Shown here one piece after another: positions 23,701-25,411 of a stretch of DNA of 64,000 bases. The notes beneath the pieces are model-generated. The model did no database searches. It was not told the origin of the DNA and worked only from the letters and a program-made list of their open reading frames with translations. Within the stretch, counting starts at the first letter, position 1. Every line of letters starts with the position of its first letter. The translations under genes and the position numbers were made by a program. The stretch is taken from the NCBI RefSeq assembly GCF_058153355.1, contig NZ_CM177019.1; one strand, given 5' to 3'.

Positions 23701-25411
23701 TGAGTTTCAGGCTCTGGCCCGGGCAGAAGATCTACAGGTCGCTGGCGGGACGGCAATCGTCTACGCAGGTACGCTGGCGGATGCATCGGTCAGTGGCGCG
23801 ACAGGAAGCCTGTCGTTAATGACGCCACGGGATAATGTTACGCCAGTTAAACTTGAAGGGGTGGTCCGGATTACCGATAGCGCGACATTAACTATCGGAA
23901 ATGGCGTCGATACGACGCTTGCCGACCTGACGGCTGCCAGCCGGGGCAGTGTCTGGCTTAACAGCAATAATTCCTGTGCAGGCACCAGCAACTGCGAATA
24001 TAGAGTAAACAGTTTGCTCCTCAACGACGGTGATGTTTATTTATCAGCACAAACAGCAGCGCCTGCCACAACTAACGGTATCTACAATACGCTGACCACC
24101 AGTGAACTTTCCGGCAGCGGTAATTTCTACCTGCATACCAACGTTGCAGGCTCCCGGGGCGATCAACTGGTCGTCAACAACAACGCCACTGGCAATTTTA
24201 AAATCTTTGTTCAGGATACCGGCGTCAGCCCTCAGTCTGACGACGCGATGACGCTGGTGAAAACAGGGGGAGGGGATGCTTCGTTTACGCTGGGTAATAC
24301 CGGCGGTTTCGTTGATCTTGGGACCTATGAGTATGTCCTGAAAAGCGACGGCAACAGCAACTGGAACCTGACCAATGATGTCAAACCCAACCCGGACCCC
24401 AACCCAAATCCGAAACCGGATCCAAAACCAGACCCAAAACCGGCTCCGAAACCAGACCCGACTCCCGATCCAACGCCGACACCCGTCCCGGAGAAACGCA
24501 TCACGCCTTCTACGGCAGCCGTACTCAATATGGCAGCAACATTACCGTTGGTCTTTGATGCTGAGCTAAACAGTATTCGCGAGCGGTTGAACATAATGAA
24601 AGCGAGTCCACACAACAATAATGTCTGGGGGACGACGTATAACACCCGTAATAATGTCACCACCGATGCGGGTGCCGGGTTTGAGCAGACGCTGACCGGA
24701 ATGACGGTGGGGATCGATAGCCGTAATGGTATTCCTGAGGGGATTGCGACGCTGGGCGCTTTTATGGGTTATTCCCATTCACATATCGGTTTTGATCGTG
24801 GAGGACATGGCAGTGTGGGCAGTTATTCTCTGGGGGGCTATGTCAGCTGGGAACATGAAAGTGGTTTCTATCTGGACGGTATCGTGAAGCTGAACCGCTT
24901 TGAAAGTAACGTAGCCGGTAAAATGAGCAGCGGTGGAGCCGCCAGCGGCAGTTATCGCAGCAACGGGCTGGGCGGTCACATTGAAACCGGGATGCGATTT
25001 ACCGATGGTAACTGGAACCTGACGCCGTATGCATCGTTAACGGGGTTCACCGCTGACAACCCCGAATATCATTTATCCAATGGTATGGAATCGAAATCAG
25101 TCGATACCCGCAGTATATATCGTGAACTGGGCGCAACGCTGAGTTACAACATGCGTCTGGGGAACGGCATGGAAGTTGAGCCGTGGCTGAAGGCGGCTGT
25201 GCGCAAAGAATTTGTCGATGATAACCGGGTGAAAGTGAATAATGACGGTAATTTTGTCAATGATTTGTCGGGCAGACGTGGAATATACCAGGCAGGTATT
25301 AAAGCCTCATTCAGCAGTTCGTTAAGCGGGCATCTCGGGGTGGGGTATAGCCATGGTGCCGGTGTGGAATCCCCGTGGAACGCGGTGGCTGGTGTGAACT
25401 GGTCGTTCTGA
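20738..25411 (+). CDS. ypjA: AIDA-I-type autotransporter adhesin (YpjA-like)
   Basis: MNRTSPHYCRRSVLSLLISALIYAPPGMAA extended signal peptide; long repetitive Gly/Thr/Asn-rich passenger; Pro-rich linker PNPDPNPNPKPDPKPDPKPAPKPDPTPDPTPTPVP; beta-barrel ending ...VAGVNWSF. Confidence 0.85.
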   Translation: MNRTSPHYCRRSVLSLLISALIYAPPGMAAFTSTVIGVVNDETVDGVQRVDERGTTNNTHIINHGYQDVYGGVSNGSIIESGGRQYVSANGTHQGQANNTVINGGSQTILDGGISTGTIIQSGSQYVYAGGTSNATTIISGRSTVMGGTANGTIINGGSQSVSSQGRVDGTTINMSGYQEITQGSLATNTTIDGGWQYVDSSSVENTTIKNGGEQRTVKSHALNTTIDGGLQVVDSSTAEITTIKSGGTQQLNNSQAMFTTIEGGTQSLNNKSTAKYTQIYSGGTQIVDYTSTSDVIEIYSGGVLDVSGGTATNVTQHDGAILKTNTNGTTVSGTNSEGAFSIHNNVADNVLLENGGHLDVYGSANKTIIKDKGTMSVLTNAKADATRIDNGGVMDVAGNATNTIINGGTQNINNHGIATGTNINSGTQNIKSGGKADTTNISSGSRQVVEKDGTATGSNISAGGSLIVYTGGIAHGVNQETGSALVANTGAGTDIEGYNKLSHFTITGGEANYVVLENTGELTVVAKTTAKNTTVDAGGKLIVQKEAKTDTTRLNNGGVLEVQDGGEAKHVEQQSGGALIASTTSGTLIEGTNSFGDAFYIRNSEAKNVVLENAGSLTVVTGSRAVDTIINANGKMDVYGKDVGTVLNSAGTQTIYASATSDKANIKGGKQTVYGLATEANIESGEQIVDGGSTDKTHIKGGTQTVQNYGKAINTDIVSGLQQIMANGTTEGSIINGGSQVVNEGGLAENSVLNDGGTLDVREKGSATGIQQSSQGALVATTRATRVTGTRADGVAFSIEQDAANNILLANGGVLTVESDTTSAKTQVNAGGREIVKTKATATGTMLTGGEQIVEGVANETMINDGGIQTVSANGEAVKTTINEGGTLTVNDNGKATDIIQNSGAALQTSTANGIEISGTHQYGTFSIAGNLATNVLLENGGNLLVLAGTEARDSTVGNGGAMQNLGQDFATTVNSGGQYTLGRSKDEFQALARAEDLQVAGGTAIVYAGTLADASVSGATGSLSLMTPRDNVTPVKLEGVVRITDSATLTIGNGVDTTLADLTAASRGSVWLNSNNSCAGTSNCEYRVNSLLLNDGDVYLSAQTAAPATTNGIYNTLTTSELSGSGNFYLHTNVAGSRGDQLVVNNNATGNFKIFVQDTGVSPQSDDAMTLVKTGGGDASFTLGNTGGFVDLGTYEYVLKSDGNSNWNLTNDVKPNPDPNPNPKPDPKPDPKPAPKPDPTPDPTPTPVPEKRITPSTAAVLNMAATLPLVFDAELNSIRERLNIMKASPHNNNVWGTTYNTRNNVTTDAGAGFEQTLTGMTVGIDSRNGIPEGIATLGAFMGYSHSHIGFDRGGHGSVGSYSLGGYVSWEHESGFYLDGIVKLNRFESNVAGKMSSGGAASGSYRSNGLGGHIETGMRFTDGNWNLTPYASLTGFTADNPEYHLSNGMESKSVDTRSIYRELGATLSYNMRLGNGMEVEPWLKAAVRKEFVDDNRVKVNNDGNFVNDLSGRRGIYQAGIKASFSSSLSGHLGVGYSHGAGVESPWNAVAGVNWSF

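Follow-up and report, generated by a model that had tools for sequence, protein, structure and literature searches.

An alternating X-Pro tract between passenger and translocator of the autotransporter YpjA/EhaD varies in length by whole dipeptide units

The gene ypjA encodes the autotransporter adhesin YpjA/EhaD and contains a stretch in which proline occupies every second position. This raises the question of what such a tract might do in a secreted surface protein, and whether the repetitive DNA that encodes it gains and loses units. The allele studied here lies in a 64,000-nucleotide stretch of contig NZ_CM177019.1 (assembly GCF_058153355.1), referred to below as the window. A preliminary description of this DNA, made from the letters alone, had singled out a Pro-rich dipeptide-repeat linker with near-repetitive codons, interpreted it as a spacer between passenger and translocator, and suggested that it could vary in length by replication slippage. 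The explanation that we consider best, with a probability of about 0.75, is that the tract is a low-complexity (X-Pro)18 extended spacer of YpjA/EhaD, probably polyproline-II (PPII)-like, that is altered by slippage of whole repeat units.

The dipeptide-repeat peptide and its near-repetitive codons are both present in the sequence. The tract reads KPNPDPNPNPKPDPKPDPKPAPKPDPTPDPTPTPVP, i.e. 18 X-Pro dipeptides or 36 residues, and equals the peptide given in the preliminary description plus a leading Lys; the span that had been assigned to it (24377-24492) covers the tract but is 6 nt too wide at its start and 2 nt too wide at its end. Codons 1-18 are AAA CCC AAC CCG GAC CCC AAC CCA AAT CCG AAA CCG GAT CCA AAA CCA GAC CCA, followed by AAA CCG GCT CCG AAA CCA GAC CCG ACT CCC GAT CCA ACG CCG ACA CCC GTC CCG as codons 19-36. 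The third base varies among the Pro codons (CCG 8, CCA 6, CCC 4), the X codons are mainly AAA, GAC, GAT, AAC and AAT, and exact matches to CCnAAnCCnGAn make up about half of the 12-nt units. Tandem Repeats Finder reported a period of 12 at 24404-24461 (4.8 copies, 73% matches, score 60) and a period of 24 at 24385-24473 (3.8 copies, 74% matches, score 87). No unit is repeated perfectly in tandem in the window allele, whose longest in-register identity is 11 nt. The Ala codon within the tract (Table 1) is a private substitution of this allele that further interrupts the KPDP repeat, as Ala was found at no X position in the 14 other alleles whose tract was read.

The concentration of proline, together with shuffles of both protein and DNA, excludes a chance origin of the tract. 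Its composition is 50% Pro and it holds 18 of the 33 prolines of YpjA, whereas Pro accounts for 1.0% of the residues elsewhere. In 2000 shuffles of the protein the longest run of X-Pro dipeptides was 4, compared with 18 observed. At the DNA level, the pattern "CC every sixth base, 18 times" has one perfect match in the window, and no match with ≤3 mismatches was obtained in 100 dinucleotide-preserving shuffles.

The location proposed in the preliminary description holds: the tract is preceded by the PF03212 autochaperone domain at the end of the passenger and followed by the predicted pore α-helix and the PF03797 β-barrel of the translocator. Relatives of known structure in the PDB bracket it, with residues 430-534 of pertactin (1DAB) aligning up to just before the tract and the helix and barrel of Vag8 (7akv) and BrkA (3qq2) aligning from just after it. 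An AlphaFold2 model of the C-terminal 511 residues of YpjA (predicted template modelling score 0.76; mean predicted local distance difference test score (pLDDT) 83.6) contains a single long segment with pLDDT <50 and without secondary structure; this segment spans model residues 171-205, and the tract spans 170-205. The coil at the tract has a pLDDT of 33-37, and the predicted order is the last autochaperone strand (162-166), the tract, a 33-residue α-helix and the barrel. According to the model, the tract would be an unstructured connector running from the autochaperone to the pore helix. It also shows the features by which a TibA-type "proline-rich domain" is defined, namely a position from the junction to the membrane domain, a high Pro content and no regular secondary structure.

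According to the proposed mechanism, the pore α-helix would sit within the β-barrel after secretion, and the tract would emerge at the cell surface and link the barrel to the autochaperone at the base of the β-helical passenger. A strictly alternating X-Pro sequence adopts no α- or β-structure and is typically extended and PPII-like. Proline at every second position would block such folding here, and an extended, semi-rigid, PPII-like tether is the most likely consequence of the alternation. At the standard PPII rise of 0.31 nm per residue, 36 residues would form a tether of about 11 nm bearing Lys, Asp, Asn and Thr, which would keep the adhesive passenger off the membrane and the lipopolysaccharide core.

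Comparison of the linker among ypjA alleles, which had been put forward as the check on the preliminary description, showed that its length is not identical in all of them but is 36, 38 or 40 residues. Nine alleles were aligned across the tract, and the tract peptide was read from 15 alleles, including that of the window. A 36-residue tract was found in the window, 2020CK-00188, D6, JNE25-005, CM182088 and R32_14_1F, and a 38-residue tract in K-12 and S1-CAM. Forty residues were reached by two independent routes: in the O157/O145/LH50-c type CCCAACCCAAAT is duplicated exactly in tandem, while the O9:H10/EP91B type (the locus of the O9:H10 fragment being unverified) extends the K-12 form by one exactly duplicated CCAGAC. 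The alleles whose position at the ypjA locus was verified represent all three classes, with 36 residues in the window and two other strains, 38 in K-12 and 40 in O157. All insertions and deletions that distinguish the alleles lie inside the tract, involve whole 6- or 12-nt units, with lengths divisible by 6, and remain in frame, so that no frameshift-type phase variation was seen among the observed length changes. The first two bases of the Pro codons are invariant across the nine aligned alleles, whereas the third positions vary and the X positions vary among D, N, K, G, I, A and E.

The frequency of the length classes was then estimated from rows taken at regular intervals in the BLAST rankings of about 2,525 matching genomes. 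A sample of 40 rows gave 12 with no length change (0 nt), 20 at +6 nt, 7 at +12 nt and 1 partial match; a sample of 60 rows gave 19, 30 and 9, respectively, with 2 outliers. All sampled K-12 derivatives (MG1655, BW25113, DH5α, J53, HB101 and S17-1) were +6 nt, and all sampled O157:H7 strains were +12 nt (40 residues). The length of the ypjA tract is polymorphic in the species and fixed within lineages. The window allele does not behave as a hypermutable variable-number tandem repeat (VNTR), as it has no perfect head-to-tail units and no copy-number differences were found within the sampled K-12 or O157:H7 strains; the absence of a perfect unit and the lineage-fixed lengths indicate a low rate of slippage. 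The suggestion that the linker could change length by replication slippage is supported, with one qualification: the whole-unit changes and the two exact tandem duplications support it, but such changes are rare in ypjA and the mechanism is read from the pattern of the indels.

In one of the two outliers, F765, an IS1203 element (IS3 family) is inserted inside the Pro-rich tract (L010:~548-602), leaving only ...DPTPEPTPTPVP and making ypjA a pseudogene. Other ypjA pseudogenes are those of O145 RM12581 (IS3 truncation), JNE25-005 (internal stop), and O9:H10 and EP91B (N-terminal loss).

The second outlier, the enterotoxigenic E. coli (ETEC) isolate ETEC4069, has a tract of 80 residues, (NP)34-DPTPEPTPTPVP, at L013:10181-10420, outside the window. 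We considered this as an expanded ypjA allele and rejected it, because 20-kb contexts place all expanded alleles between ymgJ and minE. The genes with expanded tracts represent a paralogue of about 1130-1150 aa on the core chromosome, and CM182088 carries both genes, with ypjA beside ssrA (36-residue tract) and the paralogue elsewhere (62 residues). The Prokaryotic Genome Annotation Pipeline (PGAP) names both "ypjA", and surveys of ypjA alleles that rely on annotation consequently mix two loci. The ETEC4069 array consists of near-perfect 12-nt units (AACCCA AATCCG) and perfect 6-nt units (AATCCA, eight copies); Tandem Repeats Finder gave 94% matches and a score of 306, and the in-register identity extends over 98 nt, compared with 11 nt in the window.

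The paralogue array differs between isolates that are otherwise almost indistinguishable. The 60 best matches to a 600-nt query from the ETEC4069 region span 504-624 nt and fall into 14 length classes of 48-88 residues, separated by steps of one dipeptide. Flanks were compared without gaps and pairs with 0-3 mismatches were used; ETEC4068 and the pairs of ETEC with O166 were left out owing to a downstream indel. Five porcine ETEC isolates with 0-3 mismatches in their 15-kb flanks have tracts of 66, 76, 78, 80 and 82 residues, which differ solely in the copy number of the 12-nt and 6-nt units, and two O166:H15 isolates with a single flank mismatch have 60 and 58 residues, both arrays having changed. 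The paralogue array is a genuine hypermutable in-frame VNTR. Because its units are multiples of three the frame is never shifted, and the array cannot act as an ON/OFF phase-variation switch.

We also considered whether the tract is a generic E. coli locus for multiple-locus VNTR analysis (MLVA), using published primers (PMC8143711, Table 1). None of the ten generic primer pairs (GECM-10: CVN001-017, CCR001) matched the window or the fetched loci with ≤3 mismatches, the O157-specific schemes lying outside this search, and with 0 of 20 primers matching the proposal was rejected. The paralogue (NP)n array, which stands outside these ten loci and separates isolates 0-3 bases apart in their 15-kb flanks, could serve as a high-resolution typing marker.

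At the DNA level, the mechanism that we propose for both loci is that degenerate 6/12-nt repeats would allow whole dipeptide units to be gained or lost, always in frame and most simply by replication slippage. In ypjA, synonymous and X-position differences scramble the units, hence the rare changes and the 36-, 38- and 40-residue classes fixed within lineages, whereas at the ymgJ-minE locus the tract consists of homogenised, perfect AACCCA-AATCCG and AATCCA arrays and behaves as a hypermutable VNTR. The two genes offer a natural contrast between an interrupted, stable version and a purified, hypermutable version of one tract, in which repeat purity would control mutability.

At the paralogue locus of 2020CK-00188 (L001:1136-5812, between ymgG and minE) the gene is full length (1558 aa) and has a 36-residue heterogeneous tract. 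The C-terminal ~1230 residues that it encodes are near-identical to those of the window ypjA, whereas the N-terminal ~340 are divergent, a pattern suggestive of exchange between the loci by recombination or gene conversion. Upstream of the window ypjA, the adjoining 400 nt share 96-98% identity with other ypjA loci and 90% with the paralogue locus.

The tract is an optional element among relatives. When 24 relatives were aligned, enterobacterial proteins from Citrobacter, Salmonella, Klebsiella, Leminorella and Erwinia were seen to carry Pro-rich segments of 4-80 residues (24-50% Pro) at the position of the tract. In YejO-type and 771-aa E. coli paralogues the sequence ...SWSLAENRAQ is joined straight to ITPST..VLNMAA and there is no tract. 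A protein-database search, which returned mostly fragments and paralogues rather than full-length YpjA alleles and was unusable for allele frequencies, yielded tracts of 18-36 residues that were again absent from the YejO-type and 771-aa proteins. The existence of paralogues that lack the tract indicates that secretion is independent of it, and comparison of these sequences suggests that the tract is dispensable, an optional insertion outside the secretion machinery. The natural range of 0-88 residues indicates that spacer length is adjustable in both directions, a point that bears on the engineering of YpjA-type scaffolds for surface display.

Spacers of this kind are known from other autotransporters and the tract is an ordinary example: YpjA/EhaD carries a type already described for TibA and pertactin, with modest, lineage-fixed length polymorphism. 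TibA, a self-associating AIDA-I-type autotransporter of ETEC, has a proline-rich domain between its junction and membrane domains (PMC3835316). Like the YpjA tract, this segment (residues 627-677) separates the junction or autochaperone from the membrane-embedded C-terminal domain; the YpjA tract differs in its strict X-Pro alternation over 36 residues, and the likeness is one of layout, not of compared sequences. In pertactin (Prn) of Bordetella pertussis, the number of (PQP)n repeats in region 2 differs between alleles (PMC3279416). Both proteins thus have a Pro-rich, length-polymorphic repeat in a pertactin-fold autotransporter, and the alignment of YpjA with the solved pertactin passenger extends to the point where the tract begins; however, the unit is a PQP tripeptide rather than an X-Pro dipeptide, and the alignment does not establish that region 2 occupies an equivalent position. 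A search of the literature on ypjA/EhaD with proline-rich or VNTR terms, and on ycgI, found no description of polymorphism in this tract, which is no proof that it is unpublished.

Likenesses outside the autotransporters concern composition. The Pro-rich linker of TonB is documented as an extended PPII rod bridging a defined span of the cell envelope (PMC5413942, citing Kohler et al, 2010), and its (Glu-Pro)n/(Lys-Pro)n repeats have charged X residues as does the YpjA tract; the TonB rod is periplasmic and transmits force, whereas the YpjA tract is extracellular and probably passive. Homology to TonB was rejected, since the NF008084 match (ORF residues 1259-1299) scored 17.5 bits against a cut-off of 315. 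Trypanosome procyclin (procyclic acidic repetitive protein, PARP) likewise has acidic EP/DP X-Pro repeats that form an extended stalk in the surface coat, although the organism and the anchoring are unrelated, and homology was again rejected (PF05887, score 30.1 against a gathering threshold of 100, ORF residues 1257-1314). A weak match to the N-terminus of the SslE/AcfD lipoprotein was also dismissed as compositional. Bacterial VNTR and contingency loci, as used in MLVA or as found in phase-variable genes, are built of short tandem units that slippage adds or removes, and the paralogue (NP)n array resembles them in varying among near-identical isolates in the manner of an MLVA marker; it differs in having a 6- or 12-nt unit and no ON/OFF switching, and the window allele is imperfect and stable.

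The position, composition and predicted lack of structure of the tract, its indel pattern, the contrast between lineage stability and hypervariability, and the dispensability in paralogues are observations; we infer the PPII conformation, the spacer function and the slippage mechanism, and several points weigh against this reading of the tract. What points to a PPII conformation is the X-Pro periodicity and the likeness to TonB, and the low AlphaFold2 confidence at the tract is equally compatible with a fully flexible chain. The assignment of alleles to the ypjA locus was verified for the window, K-12, O157, CM182088 and R32_14_1F only, and the class frequencies were estimated from rows taken at even intervals in the BLAST rankings rather than from a full census. 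No phenotype is linked to tract length, and the differences of 2-4 residues (0.6-1.2 nm) among ypjA alleles are most likely neutral. Finally, unequal recombination or gene conversion between ypjA and the paralogue could make or spread the same alleles. This last point leads to a tentative alternative that deserves some weight, in which the length classes of ypjA are old alleles spread by homologous recombination, by horizontal transfer of the CP4-57-like island or by gene conversion with the paralogue, and the repeats themselves are mutationally inert. Length class does go with the identity of the allele as a whole and with lineage, perfect tandem units are absent from the window allele, ypjA lies in a mobile island, and the 2020CK-00188 gene at the paralogue locus and the 90% identity of the upstream regions point to exchange or recent duplication. 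Recombination by itself leaves the origin of the classes to be explained, however, as each difference comprises whole units, two represent exact duplications in tandem, independent routes led to 40 residues (O157 type and O9:H10 type), and the paralogue array changes among near-identical strains. Slippage as the origin of the alleles and recombination as the means of their spread are compatible explanations.

The other rivals concern function. It seems unlikely that tract length is adaptive, setting how far the adhesin projects relative to O-antigen or capsule, with the paralogue VNTR as a length-tuning contingency locus. If extended, the 48-88 residues of the paralogue would measure about 15-27 nm, which is comparable to the thickness of surface polysaccharide layers, and the hypervariability of the array is maintained and always in frame; short adhesins, autotransporters among them, can moreover be masked by capsule or exopolysaccharide (PMC8286834), and by analogy the larger range of the paralogue might affect such masking. 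The variation could be neutral drift of an unstable repeat, however, the differences in ypjA are too small to matter, and many paralogues function without any tract. The stronger form of this idea, that X-Pro tract length is an evolvable ruler for the projection of YpjA-family adhesins through the O-antigen or capsule layer and that, with the graded, in-frame (Asn-Pro)n array of the paralogue, a clonal population would explore adhesin reaches of about 15-27 nm, is more doubtful still. Pertactin region 2 is an immunologically important epitope, and the YpjA tract might by analogy be a surface-exposed, immunodominant repeat under diversifying selection, serving antigenic variation or as a decoy. 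Variation in pertactin is concentrated in the (GGXXP)n and (PQP)n repeats (PMC3279416), alignment with the pertactin structure reaches the residue immediately preceding the tract, and the X positions vary among alleles; this explanation is nonetheless improbable, as the amino acid variants of the tract are few and conservative and many ypjA copies are pseudogenes or disrupted by insertion sequences, which argues for weak selection on the gene. A role in secretion, for example as an unfolded hairpin that starts translocation of the passenger through the barrel/Bam complex, would suit a segment that cannot fold prematurely and that, lying directly N-terminal to the pore helix, would be the first passenger-side segment exported. 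We consider such a role highly improbable, because the tract is missing altogether from close paralogues whose autochaperone and helix sequences are the same, and related proteins tolerate 0-88 residues. Lastly, a 112-aa antisense ORF overlaps the tract, but an antisense gene was rejected as a candidate since the translation is the Gly-X mirror of the tract (…GSGFGAGFGSGFGSG…) and has no other features; as the sense frame is a conserved 1557-aa autotransporter and the shuffles exclude chance, the probability that the signal is due to such a gene or to a compositional fluctuation is negligible.

The identity of the gene as ypjA, as named in the preliminary description, agrees with both sequence and position. 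Its product (start MNRTSPHYCRR, C-terminal end ...NWSF) shares 89% identity with K-12 YpjA from end to end (1396 of 1562 positions), with one 36-aa indel in the passenger, and the gene occupies the syntenic site defined by glaH/lhgO, the tRNA with a CAU anticodon and ssrA. In the closest syntenic genome, a 4674-nt ypjA is annotated at the same place. Pfam finds AIDA repeats in nine stretches of the passenger (PF16168, E=6.7e-138), and the NCBIfam matches are consistent with this, with TIGR04415 repeats in 13 stretches and TIGR01414 at the barrel. With AIDA repeats, an autochaperone, a helix and barrel and an aromatic C-terminus, YpjA reads as a classical (type Va) AIDA-I-type autotransporter. 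The N-terminus, MNRTSPHYCRRSVLSLLISALIYAPPGMA, looks by eye like a Sec signal peptide, and the signal peptide of YpjA is listed as 29 aa in a paper on a display toolkit (PMC13101318). A review places YpjA among the biofilm-associated AIDA-I/Ag43/TibA-like adhesins and gives no published structural study of it (PMC9289746). The coordinates of the features are collected in Table 1.

Table 1. Features in and around ypjA, by position in the window
Feature	Position	Strand	Description	Basis
X-Pro tract	24383..24490	+	putative spacer, 36 codons, protein residues 1216-1251	ORF translation, Tandem Repeats Finder, shuffles
GCT (Ala) codon	24443..24445	+	GAT (Asp) here in other 36-residue alleles	allele alignment
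ypjA/EhaD coding sequence	20738..25411	+	AIDA-I-type classical autotransporter adhesin, 1557 aa + stop; start ATG 20738	
Pertactin-like autochaperone (junction) domain	24005..24373	+	C-terminal end of passenger	PF03212, E=5.6e-45, ORF residues 1133-1255
Pore α-helix, predicted (PSTAAVLNMAATLPLVFDAELNSIRERLNIMKA)	24506..24604	+	model residues 211-243	AlphaFold2, high pLDDT
β-barrel translocator	24623..25408	+	strands at model residues 248-510	PF03797, E=1.9e-45, ORF residues 1339-1578; AlphaFold2
TIGR04415 repeats	20738-24000		13 passenger stretches	NCBIfam
Extra passenger residues	~21500-21607		36 residues relative to K-12 YpjA	
Antisense ORF	24325-24663	−	112 aa	ORF translation
Small upstream ORF (MPLSYAEYHHFIMMSLMSGEHNT...)	~20554-20673		annotated as 39-aa hypothetical	
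tRNA, CAU anticodon	17522-17597			
Transfer-messenger RNA (ssrA)	48819-49181			
CP4-57-like island	17522-49181		tRNA to ssrA	

The TIGR04415 match denotes a strand-loop-strand repeat on which autotransporter heptosyltransferases act in AIDA-I and TibA, and YpjA could accordingly be glycosylated in strains with an enzyme of the Aah/TibC type. The 36 extra passenger residues in the window allele correspond to about two AIDA-type repeats, and the 2020CK-00188 protein has further passenger indels of 17-18 residues; such indels among alleles indicate that the number of passenger repeats also varies.

Within the window, ypjA lies in a CP4-57-like island that extends from the CAU-anticodon tRNA (tRNA-Ile in the syntenic genome) to ssrA. 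The gene order in the closest syntenic genome is gabD-lhgO-glaH-amylase-tRNA-DUF5507-ypjA-CbtA/YeeU-RadC, and in K-12 and CM182088 ypjA likewise has the glaH-lhgO/tRNA(CAU) side on one flank and ssrA on the other. Judging from its homology to R32_14_1F, the island also contains CbtA/YeeU type IV toxin-antitoxin, DUF987, RadC, DUF932, inovirus Gp2-family and YfjI-family genes. At the ypjA locus, as at that of the paralogue, the small upstream ORF ends 64 nt 5′ of the gene; in the window it is present but interrupted, with a stop after codon 30.

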